From the NCBI GenBank assembly GCA_934246625.1, contig CAKQHZ010000003.1, forward strand, positions 30,001 through 62,000: a DNA stretch of 32,000 nucleotides, written 5' to 3'. A model generated the notes under the pieces. The model saw only the letters and a program-made list of their open reading frames with translations. It did not search any database and had not been told where the DNA came from. The DNA is from an uncultured Alphaproteobacteria bacterium. GTDB taxonomy: Bacteria; Pseudomonadota; Alphaproteobacteria; Rs-D84; CACZYB01. The position numbers were made by a program, and so were the translations under genes. Of this stretch, positions 2,733 through 27,319 are shown one piece after another (position 1 is the first letter of the stretch; every line of letters begins with the position of its first letter).

Positions 2733-3668
2733 CTATTGAACAGATTGTTTATCTGGATAAAAAGTAAAGATTATATTCTTCCAATCTTGATAATATTCAG
2801 CAGGAAGATTGTATGGATTACATACGATAAGGGCTCTTCTTGCACTTTCTGCAACGGCAATAAACGAAGGAGAAGAGTTGCTATCTTGGTTTAAAATTTC
2901 AATATCATTTATATTTCCATCTGGAGCAATAGTTGTTTTAATAACTATTTTCATATTTTTAATATCCTTTGCTCCTGGGTCAATATTCCAACATGAGCGA
3001 AGTTTTATTCTTATTGCATCAATGTATGAAATTGATAATTGCTTTCTTAAATAATCTGCGGTTGAATTTTCCTGATATGATTGAGTTTTTGTATCAATAA
3101 CAGATGCGGAAATTCCTTTTTTCACTTCTGAAAAAACTTCTTCTTTTTGTTTTTTTTCTTTTTCTTGTTTTATTCCATCAACAGATGCAAGCAAATCATT
3201 TAACGAACCAATTCGTTCTTCGGCAAGATTTTTTTGCTTTTCATCAATCTTTTGTTTTGGTTCATTTTTTGATTTTGTTTGTGTTTCTGTAATCAAATCA
3301 CTTGATTCTGATTTTGTATTTTCAGTTACAACTTCCTTTTCTTGCACTTGTTCCTTTGCAACAACCTTTTGTTCAACAGGAGCATTGTAATCACTTGATT
3401 TTTTAGGAGTTGTATTAGCCTTTATTTCCTTTGAAGGAGCAGGGGGTAAAATAGTTTTTTTACTTACGATTGCATTGTCTAAATCTATGATAATAGGTTC
3501 ATTTTCGCCATGTTTAGGAAGAAAAACATTTAATTGAATATGTGGAGTTATCATTATCAATGTCAAAATAAAAATGTGAATTATCACAGAAATAATCAAT
3601 CCATCTTTAAGCAAAGGTGGAATAGAATTTACAGCATTAAAAGAGGTAAAACTGAAATGCTTTTTCAC
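2733..3668 (-). CDS. tolA: TolA-like cell envelope integrity protein
   Basis: N-terminal TM (LIISVIIHIFILTLIMI), long K/E/Q-rich linker, and a C-terminal TolA/TonB-C-like domain (SYIDAIRIKLRSCWNIDPGA...DGNINDIEIL...ARRAL). Lies immediately downstream of tolQ-tolR. Confidence 0.7.
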   Translation of the reverse strand: MKKHFSFTSFNAVNSIPPLLKDGLIISVIIHIFILTLIMITPHIQLNVFLPKHGENEPIIIDLDNAIVSKKTILPPAPSKEIKANTTPKKSSDYNAPVEQKVVAKEQVQEKEVVTENTKSESSDLITETQTKSKNEPKQKIDEKQKNLAEERIGSLNDLLASVDGIKQEKEKKQKEEVFSEVKKGISASVIDTKTQSYQENSTADYLRKQLSISYIDAIRIKLRSCWNIDPGAKDIKNMKIVIKTTIAPDGNINDIEILNQDSNSSPSFIAVAESARRALIVCNPYNLPAEYYQDWKNIIFTFYPDKQSVQ

Positions 3669-4104: not shown

Positions 4105-4803
4105 CTAATTATTGATATTTTCATCTATTTGACGAGAAATAATAGCAGTAAATTCTCCAGCAAAAGCCTCCAACTTCATAACATACTTTGTTAAATCTCC
4201 AGTAATTTTGTTATATCCAATAACCGCAGGAATTGCCACAATCAATCCCAAAGCTGTAGTTGATAAAGCAGTTGCAATTCCAGGGGCAATCACACCCAAA
4301 GTTGTGCTTTGACTTGCACCAATAGCAGAAAAACTTGTCATAATACCCCAAATTGTTCCAAATAATCCAACAAGAGGAGCAATACTTCCAATCATAGAAA
4401 GGAAATCGATACGTTCTTCTAATTTACCGACTTCTTTTTCAATAGTAATAGTCATAACACGGTCAATACGTTGATGAAGGTTCATTGTCTTTGACCCATT
4501 GTTTTTTGAACGAAGAAGAGGTGAAGATTTTTTCCATTCCTTCATCGCAGAAATAAATACCAAAGACATAGGGTCTGATGCCTTTGATTTTATTGAATTA
4601 AAAAGTTCGTCCAAAGAACCGCCACTCCAAAACTTTCTTTCAAAAATATCACCAGCAAGTTTTATTTTTTTGATAAAAAATACCTTTTCAATAATAATAG
4701 CCCATGAATAAATTGATGCAATTACCATAAGTATTGATGTAAGTCTTGTCATCAAATCAGAATCTGTAAATAAACTAAACAATGAAAATGTAGATGGTTG
4801 CAT
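4105..4803 (-). CDS. tolQ: TolQ (MotA/TolQ/ExbB proton channel family)
   Basis: 232 aa with three TM segments and the conserved C-terminal half (GSIAPLVGLFGTIWGIM...GVIAPGIATALSTTALGLIVAIPAV). Confidence 0.85.
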   Translation of the reverse strand: MQPSTFSLFSLFTDSDLMTRLTSILMVIASIYSWAIIIEKVFFIKKIKLAGDIFERKFWSGGSLDELFNSIKSKASDPMSLVFISAMKEWKKSSPLLRSKNNGSKTMNLHQRIDRVMTITIEKEVGKLEERIDFLSMIGSIAPLVGLFGTIWGIMTSFSAIGASQSTTLGVIAPGIATALSTTALGLIVAIPAVIGYNKITGDLTKYVMKLEAFAGEFTAIISRQIDENINN

Positions 4804-4887
4804 ATTAACACTCCTATATTATAAATAATATAATCTTTTTACTTCCTTTTAATTATAAACACAAGAGAAAAATTTGTTTATTTTGGA

Positions 4888-4917
4888 TAAAATAAAACCC
4901 CTTACAAAACGAAGGGG
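4888..4917 (-). terminator. rho-independent terminator after the 509-aa secreted-protein gene
   Basis: Stem CCCCTT (4898-4903) / AAGGGG (4912-4917), followed on the minus strand by a U-rich run (4891-4897). It starts about 24 nt after the stop at 4941. Confidence 0.65.
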
Positions 4918-4940
4918 TCTTTATTAAATATATTGTTTTT

Positions 4941-6470
4941 TTAGTTTGCTTGCCATGCATATCCAGCAGCACAAATTGGTCGACAACCACGTGGGGTTTC
5001 TGAATTTGCAGTGTTTTGACATTGAGCAACTGTTTGGTTTGCGGTGCAATATGGTGAACCATTTGCTTTTATACCATCACCAAAATATCCGTCATTACAT
5101 ACACAATTTTTTGTCTTAGCTATGTATGTAGCATTTTCATCGCAATCACTTGCTGATAAAGTTGTTACTTGAGTGCATGAATTTACACCATCTCCTGTAA
5201 AGCCAGATTTACATACACAAGAGCCATTTACAAGTTCGGCATTTGTTGCACAATTCAAAGTGCAAATAAATCCAGAACCAGAGTAATTTGCATTACATAC
5301 ACATTCTTTTGTATCAGCTTTGAATGTAGCATTGGCATCACAATCAGAAGCGGTTGTAAGTTTTTTACATTTCAAACCTTTACCATTGCTTGTATCTTCA
5401 TATCCAGAAGGGCAAGAGCAAGATTTTGTTCCAGAATTATATTTAGCAACAGAATCGCAAGGTGTACACTTTGGCTCACCATTTTCCAAAACAAAGATTT
5501 GATTTTCTGGACATGGTAATTTACAGGAAGCAACTCCCTTTGAACCAGCAGCAGAATAAAGTCCAGTTGCACATTGTTTACATTCTATACTAATAGATGG
5601 ATTTGATGCCAAAGGTTCCGCATATCCATTTTCAAGACATTCAAACATAAAAGCATCATCATCAGCAATATCCCAACTTCTTGTATTTTCATCACCAGTA
5701 ACATTTCTTGATGTAGAGTAAGCAGGAGCAATACAAGTTTCTTGGGTATTAGGGTGGATAAATTCCTTATTTAAATTTCTTTCAACTATTGCATTAAGAG
5801 GACAGATTTCAGAAACTCCAACACAAATTTTTATATTGTTAACTTCGGCTGGCACATAACCAGTTTTACATTTGAAATAGTATGCATCATTTGCCTTTAT
5901 CCAACTTGGAAGAACAGTCATATCAGAAGCATAAGAAGATACCTTTGCTTTTTCCCAAAGGAGTGCTTCAACCAAATCATCTTCTTGAGGAGTGCAACTT
6001 TTATTTTTTTGATAATAATAAGCATAAGTTTCAGCACCATCAGAATTTGTTCCACTTGCTTTTCGTGATAAAACTTTACCAACAGGACACCAATTTACTT
6101 TTCCTGTTTTTTGAGGGGTTGTAGTTGTTTGGCGAGTTGCATTTTGTGTTGATGCAATGCTTCCACGAGAAAACATACGATTCCTTTTAGATGAAGTTGT
6201 CGCAGCACGTCTTGTATTACCTCGTCCAGTAGTTGCGGCACGTCTTGTATTACCGCGTCCAGTAGTTGCGGCACGTCTTGTATTTCCACGACCAGTTGTT
6301 GCGGCACGTCTTGTATTTCCACGATTATTTCGTGAAGTTGAAGCTGCACGTTTAGTATTGCTTCTTGTTGAGGCCTGTCTTTTTCTTGAAGGAGCAGAAT
6401 CTGCATTCTCCACAAAAACAGTTATCCCCATAAACAAGATTATCAAAATCGCAGTTATATATTTCCTCAT
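4941..6470 (-). CDS. secreted Arg-repeat / Cys-rich protein, paralogue A (509 aa), unknown family
   Basis: Signal-peptide-like N-terminus MRKYITAILIILFMGITVFVENADSA. Start taken at the ATG at 6468-6470 (GGAGAGG RBS 6 nt upstream) rather than the ORF-track 6485. Contains RRAATTGRGNT x3 plus degenerate copies, a middle domain shared with 6499-7707, and 24 Cys in the last 214 aa. Confidence 0.8.
   Translation of the reverse strand: MRKYITAILIILFMGITVFVENADSAPSRKRQASTRSNTKRAASTSRNNRGNTRRAATTGRGNTRRAATTGRGNTRRAATTGRGNTRRAATTSSKRNRMFSRGSIASTQNATRQTTTTPQKTGKVNWCPVGKVLSRKASGTNSDGAETYAYYYQKNKSCTPQEDDLVEALLWEKAKVSSYASDMTVLPSWIKANDAYYFKCKTGYVPAEVNNIKICVGVSEICPLNAIVERNLNKEFIHPNTQETCIAPAYSTSRNVTGDENTRSWDIADDDAFMFECLENGYAEPLASNPSISIECKQCATGLYSAAGSKGVASCKLPCPENQIFVLENGEPKCTPCDSVAKYNSGTKSCSCPSGYEDTSNGKGLKCKKLTTASDCDANATFKADTKECVCNANYSGSGFICTLNCATNAELVNGSCVCKSGFTGDGVNSCTQVTTLSASDCDENATYIAKTKNCVCNDGYFGDGIKANGSPYCTANQTVAQCQNTANSETPRGCRPICAAGYAWQAN
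6205..6336 (-). repeat. tandem 33-bp in-frame repeat (4 units, last degenerate) encoding RRAATTGRGNT
   Basis: Units at 6205-6237, 6238-6270, 6271-6303 and 6304-6336, all starting gcacgtcttgtat on the plus strand. Visibly more GC-rich than the flanks. Weaker copies extend to about 6375. Confidence 0.9.
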
Positions 6471-6498
6471 ATTTAACCTCTCCATAAAATAAAACTAT

Positions 6499-7707
6499 TT
6501 ATTTTGTTGTTTTTACTGCTTCTCCCATATCACTTATAGTTGAGAAATAAGCATATTTATGATTAGTGTTTTGAAAAATTTCATACATATTTTCATACAT
6601 ATTTTCTAAATTAGTTATCGAACTATTTGTATTTTGCAACATTATTCCCCAATTTGCAACAAATTCTTTATAGATCTCTGCAAACCATTCAGAATCCTCA
6701 ATACTAACAACATTATAAACATCTGTTTTAAAGCTAATAACCTTTGCTTTAAGGGCTTCTAATTTCTTATAATCATTACTATCATTTTTCAATGTTGCCA
6801 ATTTGTTATTTATTACTGAAAGTAAATTATCAGTTAATTTTATAAAGGTATTTCGGAAATCAATATCATAAATATCAACACAATTCTCTAAACCTACAGT
6901 TCCTTCTGTGTGAGTATATGGACTATATTCAGGACAAGCATAACAAACATTTGATGAGGAATCTTCATAGTAATTTTTATTACACATCATTTTGTATGCT
7001 ACATCAGCAGATATATCGGAACGGTCATTTTCTTCACTTGATAATTTTTTTACCATTGCAAAACTTGGAATGTCACAAATTTCATTTGTTGATGGGTTGA
7101 TATATCCCTTTGCAGTTTTTTCAAGTGTTTTTCCAAGTGGGCATAATGTAGATTCTTCTATACATATATTCATACCATTTTTTACTTGAGGAACATAGCC
7201 GGTATTACAATTAAATATCCAAACATGTTTTCCCGCTATCCAAGATGGTCTTGTTAAATTTTCTTCTATTTTAGAAGAATAAAGATCTGTTGTTCCAGTT
7301 GTATTTGATGGAGTTGTGCAAGTTTCAGTTTTTGATTTATAAAAAACATCATTACCATCATCATCAGTCATTTTTTTAATAACTACACCAATAGGACAAT
7401 TATTTTTTGAATCTTTTGTTTTTGAAGATGCAACACCACTTGTTCCACCAACACCAGCATTTCTAAGTAAACTTCTTCCACCAACTTGACGACGATTTGT
7501 CGCAGCACGTCTTGTGTTTCCTGTGCCAGTAGTTGCAGCACGTCTTGTATTACCGCGTCCAGTAGTTGCAGCACGTCTTGTATTTCCACGACCTGTTGTC
7601 GCCGCACGTTTTGAATTACCTGAACGTCTTTTTGCTGAATAGCATAAATCAGCAAATGAACTTACAAATAAAATAAATGCGAAAATATATTTACATAATT
7701 TTCTCAT
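6499..7707 (-). CDS. secreted Arg-repeat protein, paralogue B (402 aa), unknown family
   Basis: Signal-peptide-like MRKLCKYIFAFILFVSSFADLCYSA, with AAGGAG 6 nt before the ATG. Contains KRAATTGRGNT / RRAATTGRGNT / RRAATTGTGNT repeats. The middle domain aligns by eye with paralogue A (CPxG, PSWI, CxTGYVP, ICxxxSxxCPL, IxPxTxExC). Non-Cys, helical-looking C-terminus. Confidence 0.8.
   Translation of the reverse strand: MRKLCKYIFAFILFVSSFADLCYSAKRRSGNSKRAATTGRGNTRRAATTGRGNTRRAATTGTGNTRRAATNRRQVGGRSLLRNAGVGGTSGVASSKTKDSKNNCPIGVVIKKMTDDDGNDVFYKSKTETCTTPSNTTGTTDLYSSKIEENLTRPSWIAGKHVWIFNCNTGYVPQVKNGMNICIEESTLCPLGKTLEKTAKGYINPSTNEICDIPSFAMVKKLSSEENDRSDISADVAYKMMCNKNYYEDSSSNVCYACPEYSPYTHTEGTVGLENCVDIYDIDFRNTFIKLTDNLLSVINNKLATLKNDSNDYKKLEALKAKVISFKTDVYNVVSIEDSEWFAEIYKEFVANWGIMLQNTNSSITNLENMYENMYEIFQNTNHKYAYFSTISDMGEAVKTTK
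7505..7636 (-). repeat. tandem 33-bp in-frame repeat (3 good units plus 1 degenerate), same family as 6205-6336
   Basis: Units at 7505-7537, 7538-7570, 7571-7603 and 7604-7636. Unit 2 differs from unit 2 of paralogue A at only one base. Confidence 0.9.
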
Positions 7708-7742
7708 ATCGGTCTCCTTTATAATCCTTTTTATTCGTTTAA

Positions 7743-7771
7743 ATTATAAAATTTTATTTCAGGTTTGTAAA
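7743..7771 (-). promoter_or_regulatory. sigma70-like promoter for the paralogue B-A operon
   Basis: Minus strand reads TTTACA (7771-7766), a 17-nt spacer, then TATAAT (7748-7743), about 35 nt upstream of the ATG at 7707. Confidence 0.55.
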
Positions 7772-7784
7772 GGAAAATATAAAC

Positions 7785-10700
7785 TTAGAAAGTAAATTCA
7801 ATATTATTGATTGTTTTGAAAAGCTCAAGGTTTTCAGTTGTTATATTGTATTTGTCATTAAGAGGTATTAAAACCCTTTTATTACCAATCGTTAAATTAA
7901 ATTCTATATGTGTATATCCTGGACCAATAGCTTCCAATGTTTTTTTAAGGGCAGGGACAGCATTTTCATCTTTTATCGTTATATGCAAAGTTCCATTAAG
8001 TTGTGTGTTAAGAGATAATTCCTCAACCGTGCTTCCAAACAAAGAAGTCCTTTCTGGGGAACATTTTACATCACAATAAATTGCAACAGGTTTGCCACTT
8101 TCCAAATATTCCTTTGTTCGTCCAGTATTCATACTTCTTTCAGAAAATAATATGTCAATACTTCCCTTTGTATCACTTACATTTGCAATATAAAATTTTT
8201 TGCCTGCCTTTGAAATACGACTTTTTAAGGTATCAACAATTCCTGCAAATGTTATTTTGGTATCAAGTTTGATTCCTGCAATTTCATCACTTTTTACAGC
8301 ATTAAGGCTTTTTAAAACATTTTCATAAATGTCAAGTGGGTGTGCGGACACATAAAAACCAATCGCTTCGTGTTCATACTTTAATCGTTCAAGAGGTTTC
8401 CAATCAATCGCCTCGGCAAGTTTAATGTCATCACGTTTCATTGTAAGTTCATCAAGGGCAAACAAACTTGATTGATTTGTTTCCTTATCTTTGCTTATTG
8501 AAGAAATCTGAGCCAAAATATATGATACATTTTCAAACATTTTTGCACGATTTGGTTCAAGACTGTCAAACGCACCTGCCTTTATAAGGTTTTCAAGCAT
8601 ACGGCGATTTAGATTCTTTGGGTCAACTCGCTCAATAAAATCAGTAATATTTTTAAATGGTCCGTTTTTCTCACGTTCCTTTACAATTTCCTTTACCACA
8701 CCGACACCAACACTTTTTACGGCGGACATTGCATATCTGATATTTCCATCTTCTTCCACAGAAAAATATTCAAATGATTTATTTATATCTGGACGAAGAA
8801 TTTTTATACCCATCTTTTTTATGTTATCTGCAAAAAAGGCAAGTTTATCAACATCTGCCATATCATAAGTCATAGTTGCAGCCATAAATTCAGCAGGATA
8901 GTGAGCCTTTAAATATGCAGTTTGATAACAAACCCAAGCATAACATGCCGCATGAGATTTATTGAAACCATAGTTTGCAAATTTTTCCATCAAATCAAAA
9001 ATTTTCATTGATGTTTCTTCATCAATATTGTGGTATTTAAGACAACCATCTTTGAAAATAACACGTTGTCTTTTCATTTCCTCTTTGATTTTTTTACCCA
9101 TCGCTCTTCGAAGCAAATCTGCGGAACCCAATGAATACCCAGCAAGAGATTTTGTCATTTCCATAACTTGCTCTTGATAAATCATAATACCATGAGTTTC
9201 CTTTAGTATTGGTTCCATCAATGGGTGAAGATATTCTACTGGTTCACCAAATTTTCGCCTAATATATACAGGTATATTATCCATAGGACCAGGGCGGTAT
9301 AGGGCAACAAGAGCGACCAAATCCTCAATTTTATCTGGTTTCATATTTAAAATCACGTCTTGCATACCTTTTGATTCAAGTTGGAATATACCAGCGGTAT
9401 TTGCGGAACCGATTAAATCATAGGTCGCCTTATCATCAATCGGAATATTTGAAATATCGATTTTGACATTGTGGTCCTTATACACCATTTCACAAGCCTT
9501 TTGAATAATGGTAAGGGTTTTAAGTCCCAAAAAGTCATATTTGATAAGGCCTGTGCTTTCCACATATTTCATATTAAATTGAGTTGCAGGAATATCTGAT
9601 TTATCATCTTTATAAACCGCAACTAATTGGTCAATAGGTCTGTCTCCTATAACAACACCCGCAGCGTGAGTTCCTGTGTTTCGGAAAAGTCCTTCCAACT
9701 TAACCGCGATATTGATAAGTCCCTTTAAAACTTCATCATTTTCCACAGCCTGAGCAAATTCTGGGATATATTTTAAACAATTTGGAATATTTGTATCAAA
9801 TTCCTTTTCTTCACCATCAACAACGGCTCGGATTTTCATTGGAATCATTTTACAAAGGTCATCACACTTTGTATATGGAATACGAAGCACACGACCAACA
9901 TCTTTGATAGTATTTTTTGCTTGAAGTTTACCAAATGTTATAATCTGACTAACACTATCAAAGCCATACTTTTCTTGAATATAATGGATAACTTCACCAC
10001 GACGGTCCTGACAAAAATCAATATCGAAATCAGGCATATTAACACGTTCAGGATTTAAAAATCGTTCAAAAAGAAGATTAAATTTCAATGGGTTTAAGTC
10101 AGTAATCTTCATTGCCCAAGCAACAATAGAACCAGCACCACTACCACGTCCAGGACCCACAGGAATATTATGTGCCTTTGCCCAACCAATAAAGTCTGCA
10201 ACAATAAGGAAATATCCAGGGAACCCCATTTGTATAATAATTCCAAGCTCATATTCCAATCTGTCATAATATGGCTTTTGCTCTTCTTCGGTTGTTATAT
10301 TTGCAATTTTAAGACGTTCTGCCAACCCCTTGTATGCTTTTTCTTTTAATAAAGTCGGTTCATCAGCACCTTTTTCCACGTGTGGAAGTAATGGTTTAGA
10401 ACCCTTTACCTTAAATCCACATCGTTTTGCAATATTGATAGTATTTTCAATTGCTTCTGGTAAATCAGAAAAAAGTTTCACCATTTCATCAGGTGATTTA
10501 AAATAATGTTCTTCGGTTTCATGACGACGATTTGTTTCATCAACAAATTTTCCATCTGTGATACAAAGCAAAATATCATGAGCCTGATACATATCCTTTG
10601 TTGCAAAATAACACTCATTTGTTGCGACAATCGGAATATTATGTTTGTATGCAATATCAAGGAAATCCGCCTCAGTCCTTATTTCATCTGCGATATTATG

Positions 10701-11231
10701 ACGCATTATTTCAATATAAAATCGCCCTTTAAATATATCAAGAAGTTCCAAACATTTCTTTTCGGCTAAATCCTTGTTTTCAATAAGTAATGCTTGCCCA
10801 ATTACACCCTTTACACCACCAGAAAGAGCAATCAAGCCTTCGCTTTTTTCTTTTAAATCTTCAAATGAAATATGAGGTAATTCATCTGGCTTTTTTTTAA
10901 GATAACAATAGGAAAGTAATTTGATTAAATTTTTATATCCTACTTCGTTTTGAACAAGCAAAATCAGTTGAGGATATTTAAGTCCCATAACAATATCAGA
11001 TGGAATATTAAAATCGACTGAAATTTGTGTTCCAAGAATAGGTTGTATGCCACCTTCTGGCACATATTTTGAAAATTCCGCACCACCAAAAATATTGTTT
11101 GTATCAGTAATTGCCACCGCAGGCATATTGTATTCCTGACACATTTTTACTATTTGTGGAACACGTAAAGCTCCTTCTGCTAAAGAATAAGCAGTATGAT
11201 TTCTTAAGTGAACAAAAGGAGCATAACTCAT
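7785..11231 (-). CDS. dnaE: DNA polymerase III alpha subunit
   Basis: 1148 aa. PHP N-terminus (FVHLRNHTAYSLAEGA), GPGRGSGAGSIVAW, PDFDIDF and HAAGVVI motifs, OB-fold C-terminus. Confidence 0.97.
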   Translation of the reverse strand: MSYAPFVHLRNHTAYSLAEGALRVPQIVKMCQEYNMPAVAITDTNNIFGGAEFSKYVPEGGIQPILGTQISVDFNIPSDIVMGLKYPQLILLVQNEVGYKNLIKLLSYCYLKKKPDELPHISFEDLKEKSEGLIALSGGVKGVIGQALLIENKDLAEKKCLELLDIFKGRFYIEIMRHNIADEIRTEADFLDIAYKHNIPIVATNECYFATKDMYQAHDILLCITDGKFVDETNRRHETEEHYFKSPDEMVKLFSDLPEAIENTINIAKRCGFKVKGSKPLLPHVEKGADEPTLLKEKAYKGLAERLKIANITTEEEQKPYYDRLEYELGIIIQMGFPGYFLIVADFIGWAKAHNIPVGPGRGSGAGSIVAWAMKITDLNPLKFNLLFERFLNPERVNMPDFDIDFCQDRRGEVIHYIQEKYGFDSVSQIITFGKLQAKNTIKDVGRVLRIPYTKCDDLCKMIPMKIRAVVDGEEKEFDTNIPNCLKYIPEFAQAVENDEVLKGLINIAVKLEGLFRNTGTHAAGVVIGDRPIDQLVAVYKDDKSDIPATQFNMKYVESTGLIKYDFLGLKTLTIIQKACEMVYKDHNVKIDISNIPIDDKATYDLIGSANTAGIFQLESKGMQDVILNMKPDKIEDLVALVALYRPGPMDNIPVYIRRKFGEPVEYLHPLMEPILKETHGIMIYQEQVMEMTKSLAGYSLGSADLLRRAMGKKIKEEMKRQRVIFKDGCLKYHNIDEETSMKIFDLMEKFANYGFNKSHAACYAWVCYQTAYLKAHYPAEFMAATMTYDMADVDKLAFFADNIKKMGIKILRPDINKSFEYFSVEEDGNIRYAMSAVKSVGVGVVKEIVKEREKNGPFKNITDFIERVDPKNLNRRMLENLIKAGAFDSLEPNRAKMFENVSYILAQISSISKDKETNQSSLFALDELTMKRDDIKLAEAIDWKPLERLKYEHEAIGFYVSAHPLDIYENVLKSLNAVKSDEIAGIKLDTKITFAGIVDTLKSRISKAGKKFYIANVSDTKGSIDILFSERSMNTGRTKEYLESGKPVAIYCDVKCSPERTSLFGSTVEELSLNTQLNGTLHITIKDENAVPALKKTLEAIGPGYTHIEFNLTIGNKRVLIPLNDKYNITTENLELFKTINNIEFTF

Positions 11232-25720: not shown

Positions 25721-27319
25721 ATGACATTTCCTAATATATCACCGATAGCATTTGAATTTCTTGGTTTCCCAATTCGTTGGTATGCTTTGGCATATATCGC
25801 TGGATTTATATTGTCATTTTATCTTATAAAATATATGTTAAGACAATCAACAAATAATACTATATCATATAAGGATTTAGATGACCTTTTCACTTATATG
25901 ATTTTTGGTATAATCCTTGGTGGTCGATGTGGATATGTCCTTTTTTATAACTTTCAATATTATATATCAAAGCCATTAGAAATTTTTCAAATTTGGCATG
26001 GTGGTATGTCATTTCATGGCGGACTTATCGGAAGTATAATTGCCATATATTTATGGTGCAAAAAATACAATCAACATTTCTTTTTTGTTGCCGATTTTTT
26101 AAGCATTTGCACACCAATAGGTTTATTTTTTGGTCGTATTGCAAACTTTATAAATGGAGAATTATATGGACGAATTACCACATCAAAATTTGGTATAGTA
26201 TTCCCAAACACAAATGGACTTCCACGATACCCAAGCCAATTATTTGAGGCATTAAGTGAAGGACTACTCCTTTTCATACTCCTTTTTTCATTAAGAAATG
26301 TAAAAAAAATTCGAAATCGTTATGGGGTTCTTTCTGCTATATTCATAGGAGGTTATGCAATTTCAAGAATATCAATGGAAAACTTCCGTGAACCAGATGC
26401 ACAAATTGGGTTCCTTCCTTTTGGACTAACAATGGGACAACTTTTAACAATCCCTATGTTGATTTTTTCAATTACAGCAATCATATATTTGTTAAGAAAA
26501 AATGAAACCGAACAAACTTTCATTACCTCACCATTATTAAATAATACAAAATTTGTATATAATAGATTTTTTACTCGTAATGGTGGCGTTTCCACAGGTG
26601 TTTTTGAATCTTCCAATGCAAAATTTGAAACATCTGATGACTATGATAATGTAAAGAAAAATCGTGAAATTTTACTATCTTCTATTGGGCTTGATGCCAA
26701 TACATCACTTATAACATTAAATCAAAAACATACAAACGAAGTAATAGTTGTAAATAAACATCACAGGCCAGTCAAAGATTATCTTTCAACCGAAGCCGAT
26801 GGACTTTTATCCACAACACCCAATATTGCCATTGGAATTTTAACTGCGGATTGTGTCCCTGTTCTTTTGATTGATGAAGAACACAAAATTGTTGGAGCAA
26901 TTCATTGCGGTTGGCAAGGTATTTATAAGGATATTATTAAAACAACTGCCTTAAAATTAAAGGCATTAGGTGCAAATTTATCAATGGTAAAGGTTGCTAT
27001 TGGACCATGCTTAAAGCAAAAATCTTATGAAGTTGATTTTGACTTTATGGAAAAAATTGTTGCACAAAACAAATCTTATGAAAAACTTTTTAAACAAAAA
27101 AAGGATAATAAAAACAAATATCTTTTTGATTGCACAAAATATTGTATTGAAAAGCTAAAGACAGAAGGTTTTAAAAATATCGAAGTTCTTAATTTTGATA
27201 CTTATACACAAAAGGATTTATTTTTCAGCTATCGAAGAAGCATTATTACAAAGGATTTTGCAGAAACACCAACTGACGAAGGAAGAATCCTTTCCATAGT
27301 TGCATTGAAAAATGAATAA
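25721..27319 (+). CDS. lgt: fusion protein: prolipoprotein diacylglyceryl transferase (Lgt) plus PgeF/YfiH (DUF152, purine nucleoside phosphorylase / peptidoglycan editing factor family)
   Basis: Residues 1 to ~265 carry Lgt motifs (IRWYALAYIAG, WHGGMSFHGGLIG, GRIANFINGELYGR, PSQLFEA). Residues ~270 to 532 carry YfiH motifs (FFTRNGGVS, NQKHTNEV, EADGL, ILTADCVPVLL, GAIHCGWQG, AIGPC...YEV). One uninterrupted frame of 532 aa. Confidence 0.85.
   Translation: MTFPNISPIAFEFLGFPIRWYALAYIAGFILSFYLIKYMLRQSTNNTISYKDLDDLFTYMIFGIILGGRCGYVLFYNFQYYISKPLEIFQIWHGGMSFHGGLIGSIIAIYLWCKKYNQHFFFVADFLSICTPIGLFFGRIANFINGELYGRITTSKFGIVFPNTNGLPRYPSQLFEALSEGLLLFILLFSLRNVKKIRNRYGVLSAIFIGGYAISRISMENFREPDAQIGFLPFGLTMGQLLTIPMLIFSITAIIYLLRKNETEQTFITSPLLNNTKFVYNRFFTRNGGVSTGVFESSNAKFETSDDYDNVKKNREILLSSIGLDANTSLITLNQKHTNEVIVVNKHHRPVKDYLSTEADGLLSTTPNIAIGILTADCVPVLLIDEEHKIVGAIHCGWQGIYKDIIKTTALKLKALGANLSMVKVAIGPCLKQKSYEVDFDFMEKIVAQNKSYEKLFKQKKDNKNKYLFDCTKYCIEKLKTEGFKNIEVLNFDTYTQKDLFFSYRRSIITKDFAETPTDEGRILSIVALKNE

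Follow-up and report, generated by a model that had tools for sequence, protein, structure and literature searches.

A rapidly evolving pair of paralogous genes between dnaE and tolQ of an uncultured gut alphaproteobacterium encodes Cys-rich proteins of a new family with a predicted leader and an Arg-rich repeat tract

A 32,000-nucleotide stretch of DNA from an uncultured Alphaproteobacteria bacterium (contig CAKQHZ010000003.1, positions 30,001–62,000; referred to below as the window) contains two open reading frames (ORFs), designated B and A, located in this order on the minus strand between dnaE (7785–11231) and tolQ (4105–4803). The gap between them is 28 nt long. The exact B protein has been recorded in five contigs and the exact A protein in four, and the 90% clusters to which they belong contain 12 (B) and 28 (A) members. 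BLASTP comparison revealed 39% identity of the two products over 235 amino acids (aa) (E 3e-43), showing that A and B are paralogues, regarded here as anciently duplicated members of one family. An earlier reading of the same DNA, made without database searches (the sequence-only reading), had proposed this arrangement of two genes 28 nt apart, with paralogous products and with a promoter and a terminator of their own; the ORF coordinates and the BLASTP result agree with it, and both expression signals were recovered in the analysis described below. The pair is the fastest-evolving feature of an otherwise strongly conserved region.

The genetic organization of the locus is presented in Table 1. 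The promoter-like sequence upstream of B consists of the hexamers TTTACA and TATAAT separated by 17 nt. Such sites are not enriched in this AT-rich stretch (13 were seen, compared to 15.6 expected from shuffled sequences), and the promoter is credible because it is kept in orthologous loci, not because of the consensus match itself. Upstream of the start of the B-like gene in loci L010, L011, L012 and L003, a −35-like hexamer (TTGATA in L003), a 17-nt spacer and TATAAT are found at a conserved distance, and the spacer sequences differ among these loci while the hexamers are retained. The B–A spacers of orthologous loci are 20–25 nt long, each with a GGAG-type Shine-Dalgarno sequence. A GC hairpin followed by a T-run (4921–4894 in the window) was identified after A in 6/6 loci compared, with differing stem sequences and diverged surroundings. 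Promoter and terminator alike are retained in the orthologues of the locus, and this phylogenetic footprint supports the view that B and A form a self-contained operon insulated from tolQRA. Co-transcription with tolQRA was considered and is ruled out by the conserved terminator. Between the terminator and tolQ (within 4804–4883) lies a further conserved element, TCTCTTGTNTTTATA, which is present in all species-level lineages compared and probably represents the promoter of tolQ or another site of regulation.

Table 1. Positions of the features of the B–A locus in the window.
Feature	Position	Strand	Remarks
Promoter-like TTTACA-N17-TATAAT	7743..7771	−	~40 nt 5′ of the B start codon; 11/12 in consensus scan
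Shine-Dalgarno of B, AAGGAG	7714..7719	−	read from sequence
Gene B	6499..7707	−	402 aa; ORF call
B leader, aa 1–24 (MRKLCKYIFAFILFVSSFADLCYS)	7636..7707	−	Sec-type n-region and h-region
B polycationic tract, aa 25–78	7474..7635	−	16 K/R, 0 D/E
33-nt tandem array in B	7502..7617		Tandem Repeats Finder (TRF): 3.5 copies, 83% matches, score 139
B linker, aa 79–101	7405..7473	−	Gly/Ser-rich, low charge
B shared domain, aa 102–280	6868..7404	−	10 Cys
B tail, aa 281–402	6502..6867	−	Cys-free; lineage-specific, hypervariable
Shine-Dalgarno of A, GGAGAGG	6477..6483	−	within the 28-nt B–A spacer
Gene A	4941..6470	−	509 aa counted from MRKYIT; ORF call
A leader, aa 1–25	6396..6470	−	best 15-residue Kyte–Doolittle average 2.79
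A polycationic tract, aa 26–105	6156..6395	−	23 K/R, 0 D/E
33-nt tandem array in A	6205..6323		TRF: 3.6 copies, 94% matches, score 196
A linker, aa 106–125	6096..6155	−	Thr/Gln-rich, no acidic residues
A shared domain, aa 126–320	5511..6095	−	mostly beta
A C-terminal EGF-like array, aa 321–509	4944..5510	−	20 Cys
Intrinsic terminator 3′ of A	4884..4921	−	10-bp GC-containing stem and T-run

Both predicted proteins start with a hydrophobic leader. That of B (best 15-residue Kyte–Doolittle average 2.2) shows no variable column among 10 strain alleles, and that of A carries no nonsynonymous changes relative to its counterpart in L018. Plausible cleavage sites read from the sequence are CYS/A in B and ADS/A in A, with a strongly basic mature N-terminus. 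No lipobox was found: B contains F-A-D-L-C (L at −1, D at −2) and A has no Cys within its first 127 residues. No Tat motif was recognized either, the n-regions being composed of MRK only, with the RR pairs placed after the h-region. Pfam and NCBIfam scans of A and B detected no beta-barrel, autotransporter or two-partner secretion (TPS) domain.

The leaders are followed by polycationic tracts with an isoelectric point (pI) of 12. The tract of B comprises ~3.5 copies of GN(T/S)(R/K)RAATTG(R/T), and that of A four GNTRRAATT(GR/SS) units, of which strains have 2, 3 or 4. The 33-nt arrays detected by TRF in both genes confirm the Arg-rich 11-aa repeat described in the sequence-only reading, and since they are in frame, a change in copy number alters only the length of the tract. 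The four perfect GNTRRAATTGR units differ from each other in 1–4 of 33 nt, all the differences being synonymous, and the closest pair (A62 and B41, 1/33 nt different) spans both genes, whose products are only ~30% identical outside the repeats. This points to a repeat that is kept as a peptide, by gene conversion, peptide-level selection, or both. The synonymous divergence (dS) of the A tract and linker relative to L018 is 0.48, compared to 0.10–0.12 for the rest of A, which fits repeat units that are shuffled or converted rather than changed by point substitution.

Behind the linkers, A and B contain a shared 10-Cys domain of the disulfide type, which is acidic in both proteins (pI ~4.8). The AlphaFold2 (AF2) model of this domain of A is mostly beta (predicted local distance difference test score, pLDDT, 86; predicted template-modelling score, pTM, 0.71). 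Its two halves align with each other (hhalign probability 89%, E 2e-6, 72 columns) and the domain is, judging from this alignment, an internal duplication of a ~85-aa unit of the form CP-x-G/N ... C ... F-x-C-x2-G-Y ... C. The alignment of the family contains 14 invariant columns, 8 of which are Cys.

In Pfam and NCBIfam scans, neither A nor B reached the threshold of any family. Weak matches to the Pfam models Ephrin_rec_like, NCD3G and TNFR_ELAPOR1 were obtained with the final ~50 aa of the shared domain in 4/9 members; for Ephrin_rec_like (PF07699) the best E value was 0.0033, below the 23.1-bit gathering cut-off, and A itself gave no match. This last module therefore resembles, below threshold, those of ephrin receptors and TNFR. 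The first ~130 aa had no match in Pfam, NCBIfam or the PDB, and a PDB sequence profile search with the shared domain also found nothing. Foldseek comparisons of the domain were insignificant (best E 0.046 against the PDB, with a TM-score of ~0.2 to the Cys-rich ladders of TNFR and CaSR, and best E 0.042 against BFVD) and did not identify it as a TNFR Cys-rich domain. Across these resources (Pfam, NCBIfam, PDB profile, Foldseek against PDB and BFVD) no characterized family covers the shared domain. The statement of the sequence-only reading that no family could be named thus stands for most of this domain, but has to be amended for the C-terminus of A, which is EGF-like, and, at sub-threshold level, for the ~50-aa ephrin-receptor-like module.

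The C-terminal array of A is built of three C-x10-12-C-x-C-x10-16-C units, followed by a conserved PRGC-x3-C-x2-G-x2-W. It carries the signature C-x-C-x2-G-[YF]-x-G-D-G, and its architecture is conserved in orthologues across species-level lineages. Foldseek analysis of the AF2 model of this region (pLDDT 75) revealed similarity to EGF arrays (E 7e-5 to 9e-4, probability 0.95–1.0), including NEL and NELL2 EGF1-6 (E 7e-5 and 1e-4, probability 1.0) and Notch1 EGF20-24; the TM-scores are low (~0.25), as expected of flexible rods. A PDB sequence profile search detected the EGF region of uromodulin (E 1.2e-5). The Pfam EGF models scored below their gathering cut-offs on A (EGF_3, 23.7/28.5 bits; EGF_2, 19.3/22.1; EGF_TEN, 22.9/65). 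As modelled, the C-terminus of A is EGF-like at the level of fold, with four-Cys units, and not at the level of Pfam families. The tail of B is missing from the B-like orthologues of other species-level lineages, and it has neither a Pfam nor a PDB sequence match.

The last 214 aa of A contain 24 Cys and the last 122 aa of B none, as had been counted before. Mature A has 31 Cys and mature B has 10, and these numbers are found in all 7 A-like orthologues and all 10 B-like proteins, respectively. The even number of Cys on which the sequence-only reading had based its suggestion of disulfide bonding is therefore true of B and fails for A, whose odd number is conserved in seven orthologues. Judging from these counts, the conserved odd Cys implies that A carries a free thiol or an intermolecular disulfide; the unpaired residue is possibly located in the terminal PRGC-x3-C-x2-G-x2-W, which holds three Cys.

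The distribution of related proteins was examined in large protein collections. In word-indexed searches, 5.8 billion proteins yielded only 13–14 clusters, and an exhaustive search of 1.84 billion cluster representatives with a profile of the shared domain produced 62 matches at E ≤ 1e-3, 48 of them at E ≤ 1e-10, which makes the family a very small one. The profile matched the representative of the A cluster with E 3e-63 and that of the B cluster (P0005, aa 103–288) with E 4.7e-66; the weakest matches cover only the last ~50 positions, i.e. a generic Cys-rich repeat. Named members come from metagenome-assembled genomes labelled ‘Alphaproteobacteria bacterium’ or ‘bacterium’, and all the traced contigs originate from gut samples (human, including Hadza, bank vole, water deer and similar).

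All of the N-terminally complete representatives (33/33) have a hydrophobic leader and then a tract of 70–171 aa with a net charge of +8 to +36, in which Ser, Thr, Ala, Gly and Asn constitute 50–74% of the residues, followed by the shared domain and a variable C-terminus. These 33 representatives contain the core motif [KR]R[AS]A[ST] 59 times, compared to 1.6 ± 1.2 times (maximum 7) in composition-preserving shuffles, and the looser R[AS]A[ST] is present at least twice in 24 of them. Part of these counts is due to tandem copies; the motif nevertheless recurs across representatives that share less than 50% identity with each other. The period of the repeats varies between members of the family while the core persists. 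A query with the tract alone gave 1214 word candidates, none at E ≤ 1. Some other members end in Ephrin_rec_like repeats (P0040, downstream) or in a Gly_rich_2 domain, in both cases above the Pfam cut-off, and the Gly_rich_2 region also matches a phage tail PHROG.

On the basis of these features, A and B qualify as members of a new family, defined by a leader, an acid-free [KR]R[AS]A[ST] tract and a ~175-aa domain with the conserved Cys pattern C-P...C...C...C-P-L...C...C...C-x2-C. It is best filed within a known broad kind, the modular, variable, Cys-rich secreted or surface proteins. A literature search (RF32) returned nothing on this family. PHROGs and PADLOC searches gave no result for A or B, and a phage or defence origin was rejected. 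One protein found by a search with B, P0016 (L006:127–215), carries the leader, a GGGKTxVKSNxY extension, the h-region and KRAAT repeats on an unrelated body with a Gly-rich C-terminus and no shared domain, which hints that the N-terminal part may be a portable module. A homologue of the type represented by P0007 is located between a gene for an SH3-domain protein and tsf; in a Hadza-gut genome, genes for VirB3 and VirB4 of type IV secretion (L001:1–386) lie ~7.6 kb from it.

A scan of a genome collection with a narrow B-like alignment yielded five loci. The order secA-dnaE-B-A-tolQ-tolR-tolA-like-M23-bactofilin-rpiB was also identified in L003/L009, L010, L011 and L012, as well as in the near-identical strains L007, L008 and L018, and the position of the B–A pair is preserved in at least four further species-level lineages. 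In L013, dnaE is followed by a B-like gene with no tol genes beyond it; from this arrangement and the location of the P0007-type homologue, the link of the pair to tol is positional rather than obligatory. The GC content of the locus (0.32–0.36) is that of the window. With this composition, and with the pair syntenic in other species-level lineages, the possibility of a recent horizontal-transfer island was rejected, and the locus, which had been called accessory-looking in the sequence-only reading, proved to be ancient and not recently acquired.

Despite the conserved position, the sequences of A and B have diverged strongly. Across species-level lineages, secA and tolQ are ~91% and dnaE is 82% identical, compared to 36–43% for B and 34–38% for A. 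The ratio of nonsynonymous to synonymous divergence (dN/dS) was calculated for the window versus L007 (dS ~0.03) and versus L018 (dS ~0.1). It amounts to 0.93 (L007) and 0.53 (L018) for B and to 0.34 and 0.24 for A. The corresponding values are 0.05 and 0.009 for dnaE, 0 and 0.02 for tolQ, 0 and 0.04 for the M23 peptidase gene and 0.21 and 0.12 for the tolA-like gene, with 0.07 (L007) for secA. Fisher tests against the pooled housekeeping genes (L018) gave p values of 7e-15 for B and 2e-12 for A. The regional dN/dS values (L018) fall from 1.14 in the B tail and 0.46 in the EGF-like part of A to 0.17–0.38 for the shared domains and 0 for the leaders. In a set of ten B alleles, the variable columns constitute 39% of the tail and 16% of the shared domain, and none are found in the leader. 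Judged by these comparisons, the C-terminal ends are the least constrained parts of both proteins; for these ends, pairwise counts do not separate positive selection from relaxed constraint. The tolA-like gene (2733–3668, minus strand), located after tolR, encodes a 311-aa protein in the TolA-like position, with a low-complexity Lys/Glu-rich middle and no Pfam match, whose identity across species-level lineages is only ~60%, compared to 83–92% for TolQ and TolR.

Several relatives of the pair contain poly-G tracts. In the P0007-type gene such a tract is placed 28 nt into the coding region, between flanks that are essentially identical (one SNP). Its length, taken from assemblies, is G9 in four contigs (L001:8029–8037, L002, L016 and L017), G8 in L015 (421–428) and G7 in L014 (326–332). 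The G9 allele is in frame with the first ATG and the G8 allele with the second; with G7 no start codon is in frame, and the start called by the gene finder then falls within the h-region, yielding P0011. The tract looks like a three-state translational phase switch. Its two start codons in two frames recall lic1A of Haemophilus influenzae. Switching by changes in homopolymer length is the general mechanism of simple-sequence contingency loci (PMC5084427). In P0016, with G9, a well-placed ATG (Shine-Dalgarno GGAG) meets a stop after 15 codons and G10 would restore the frame, so that this gene, too, probably has the feature of a contingency locus. A poly-G tract of this kind encodes the N-terminal extension ‘GGGK/GGVK’ found in eight or more family representatives.

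Tracts of G8–G10 are also present in the syntenic B–A operon of three other species-level lineages, where they lie between dnaE and the conserved promoter (L003:7044–7051, also in L004 and L009; L010:7567–7576; L012:1573–1582); in L011 the tract is interrupted. The three assemblies of one species (L003, L004 and L009) all have G8. The context of these tracts is TTTACA-N9-10-G(n)-TAA, within the spacer of a second −35-like/−10-like pair, and they may represent a second, length-sensitive promoter or the relic of a tract in the 5′ coding region. The 77-nt dnaE–B intergenic region of the window has no such tract. Beyond the left end of the window, in the same lineage, a G9/C9 tract (L007:19673–19681, also L008:13311–13319) is located within the 3′ part of a gene for a 458-aa polytopic membrane protein with no Pfam match, adjacent to rplM and rpsI; this gene may be a second contingency locus, possibly for an enzyme modifying envelope glycans. 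A scan of the JGI metagenomes for the poly-G leader DNA gave no matches, and the lineage seems to be absent from that collection.

Comparison with known systems identified several partial likenesses. Listeria InlB contains GW modules, which are basic, anchor this secreted protein to an anionic envelope polymer and also bind host glycosaminoglycans. The GW modules are folded, SH3-like and C-terminal, and belong to a Gram-positive bacterium, whereas in A and B, which belong to a diderm, a disordered repeat at the N-terminus is the candidate anchor, and the likeness is one of analogy only. The nearest functional analogue, by analogy and not by homology, is chlamydial OmcB, whose surface-exposed basic N-terminal domain binds heparan-sulfate-like glycosaminoglycans and carries the adhesive function (PMC2229832). 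OmcB, a Cys-rich protein in the envelope of a diderm, has a signal peptide and behind it a short, strongly basic N-terminal domain, an order that recalls the predicted leader and the tract of A and B. However, OmcB is unrelated to A and B in sequence and fold; A and B have no OmcB-related Pfam match (only weak EGF-type and unrelated ones), and the body of OmcB contains no EGF-like or ephrin-like modules. The basic domain of OmcB has one or two XBBXBX motifs and 26% basic residues, whereas the tract of A and B is a 55–80-aa acid-free tandem repeat, ~30% basic, with the core [KR]R[AS]A[ST]; XBBXBX is not matched by the unit GNTRRAATTGR and is represented by a single SKRNRM, in A only.

The C-terminal 190 aa of A, modelled as a rod of disulfide-knotted beta-hairpin modules, are similar to animal EGF arrays (NELL/NEL, Notch, Delta, uromodulin) but differ from them in having units of four rather than six Cys, an odd total number of Cys and a bacterial context. 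The end of the shared domain (F-x-C-x2-G/N-Y ... C-x2-C-P/A-x-G-x-Y ... G-x4-C) is like the Ephrin_rec_like, GCC2_GCC3 and TNFR repeats; it differs from Ephrin_rec_like and TNFR in that the scores of A and B are sub-threshold and that the unmatched first ~130 aa appear, from the hhalign result, to belong to a distinct duplicated unit. With the contingency loci of Neisseria and Haemophilus the relatives share G tracts, in the 5′ coding region or upstream, that vary between samples and shift the frame. The operon of the window differs from these loci in having no G or C run of six or more, and the relatives' tract lengths come from assemblies.

The window encodes LptC, a KdsD-like protein, Lgt, Tol proteins and an OmpA-domain (Pal-like) protein, which identifies the organism as a diderm with lipopolysaccharide (LPS). 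Scans of the window for tRNA genes and Rfam families gave no match. On the plus strand, a 532-aa ORF (25721–27319) fuses LGT (prolipoprotein diacylglyceryl transferase, aa 8–256) to Cu-oxidase_4 (YfiH/PgeF-type, aa 284–507).

The explanation that we favour, tentatively and at somewhat less than even probability, is that A and B are exported, oxidized, surface-associated or extracellular binding proteins, with the N-terminal polycation as a tether. According to this proposal, the Sec-type leader would direct export, the Cys would be oxidized in the periplasm, and the proteins would end on or outside the cell surface. Close to the cell, the polycation would hold the protein electrostatically to an anionic polymer, in the simplest case LPS of the organism itself, with the uncharged Ser/Thr/Gly linker as a flexible spacer and the shared domain as a conserved stalk. 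The C-terminal tips would form outward-facing binding or antigenic surfaces, diversifying under the pressure of host immunity, phages or competitors. A surface or extracellular location is suggested because the domain types need disulfides and typify extracellular proteins, because the parts are arranged as in surface fibrils or adhesins anchored at their N-terminus, and because evolution is fastest at the tips and phase variation is seen in relatives. The sequence-only reading had pointed to an envelope or host-interaction system; the fast evolution of the pair and its phase-variable relatives fit this, but the polybasic flank, an anomaly for simple Sec export, had been overlooked. Our confidence in the description of the locus (anatomy, paralogy, limits of the family, synteny, rapid evolution and poly-G switching in relatives) is much higher than in this explanation, whose elements (export, disulfide bonds, location at the surface, the role of the tract as a tether and a ligand) we infer.

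A number of observations weigh against this explanation. The most serious concerns export. Positive charge placed early in the mature chain inhibits Sec export, as is known from E. coli. In A and B the basic residues begin 1–4 positions past the likely cleavage site, with at least seven within 20 residues after the h-region, and such early positive charge is seen in nearly every family member. The positive-inside rule predicts cytoplasmic retention of a strongly positive flank (PMC6589146). Export is still a prediction, because the polybasic flank contradicts both this rule and the Sec charge block; as read from the sequence, this is an anomaly that would conflict with simple Sec export, and either the proteins are handled differently in export or their topology is other than it seems. 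Pfam and NCBIfam reveal no known outer-membrane export signal in A or B, and the localization is a predicted one. The tether role, in turn, is suggested by architecture and analogy. Runs of six or more G or C are absent from the window, which does not itself show the feature of a contingency locus, while the tract lengths of the relatives were taken from assemblies, not reads. The dN/dS near 1 in the B tail could reflect relaxed constraint instead of diversifying selection. Finally, P0016 is the only protein that shows the leader on a different cargo.

This last protein bears on a broader proposal, which is possible but doubtful, that the acid-free [KR]R[AS]A[ST] tract directly behind the leader is a new portable sorting or anchoring module for surface display in diderms, used on several unrelated cargoes, which overrides the Sec charge block; the proteins together would form a phase-variable, diversifying surface repertoire in an uncultured lineage of the human gut. 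As part of this proposal, either a dedicated route of export or attachment would recognize the tract or the tract would bind LPS, and in some relatives an N-terminal extension encoded by poly-G would precede the leader.

Other explanations place the same parts in different settings. It seems unlikely to us that A and B are secreted soluble factors directed at the host, whose EGF-, TNFR- and ephrin-receptor-like modules mimic or bind host extracellular proteins and whose tract binds host polyanions (heparan sulfate, sulfated mucin or DNA) instead of the organism's own surface. Their domain types are indeed typical of animal extracellular proteins, every traced family contig originates from the gut of humans or animals, heparan sulfate is bound by OmcB through its basic N-terminal domain (PMC2229832), A has the one XBBXBX match mentioned above and a homologue has genes for VirB3 and VirB4 in its vicinity. 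However, the repeat units fit neither of the heparin-binding motifs XBBXBX and XBBBXXBX, no secretion route was identified, the EGF-like similarity is generic and points to no particular host ligand, and a tract beside the leader together with a distal variable end better suits a cell-proximal anchor. We consider it still more improbable that A and B are periplasmic envelope proteins acting in integrity or division with Tol, the M23 peptidase and bactofilin, the polycation contacting peptidoglycan or anionic lipids of the inner membrane. The position of the pair directly 5′ of tolQ-tolR-tolA-like-M23-bactofilin in five species-level lineages would agree with such a role, as would a Sec leader without an outer-membrane targeting signal, which leads to the periplasm by default. 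The pair is nevertheless split from tol by the conserved terminator and the separate conserved element upstream of tolQ, the B-like gene of L013 has no tol genes beside it and the P0007-type homologue is located elsewhere. Moreover, dN/dS values of 0.5–1 are unexpected for partners of housekeeping proteins (TolQ, TolR and M23 are at 0–0.08), and phase variation, as in the relatives, is unusual for core envelope machinery.

The charge distribution around the leader would agree with an uncleaved reverse anchor (N-terminus out, C-terminus in), as predicted by the positive-inside rule, with the tract and the Cys-rich body in the cytoplasm, the Cys binding metal and the tract binding nucleic acid or lipid. 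The C-terminal flank carries +7 in 20 residues (~+19 to +24 overall), compared to +2 for the N-terminal flank, and several CxxC pairs are present. This topology is nonetheless very improbable in our estimation, and is weighted so low only because the downstream folds are disulfide-dependent: the EGF-like and beta-hairpin ladder folds predicted by AF2 match disulfide-dependent extracellular domains, the Cys are placed as in EGF-like units (C-x-C-x2-G-[YF]) and not as in zinc ribbons, and the family includes members with Ephrin_rec_like and Gly_rich_2 above threshold. The lowest probability is assigned to polymorphic toxins or bacteriocin-like proteins, in which a conserved N-terminal trafficking part is combined with variable C-terminal effectors. 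The swapping of C-terminal modules behind a conserved N-terminal part, and the phage tail-fibre-like Gly-rich C-terminal domain of some members, recall such systems, but Pfam, NCBIfam, PADLOC and PHROGs identified no toxin or enzyme domain in A or B, the operon is followed by a terminator and tolQ with no small gene of the immunity type downstream, and the C-terminal modules are repeats of the binding type.

If A and B are truly exported, the polycationic tract behind their leaders points to an unrecognized way of exporting or anchoring proteins. Arrays of EGF-like modules are uncommon in bacteria, and that of A raises host mimicry or acquisition from eukaryotes as a question. Almost nothing is known about the interactions of uncultured gut Alphaproteobacteria (of humans, including Hadza, voles and water deer) with their hosts, phages and neighbours. 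The variable tips, the variation in repeat number and the poly-G frame switching in relatives are marks of exposed, selected surface molecules, and the family described here provides candidate adhesins, antigens or phage receptors of such a lineage.

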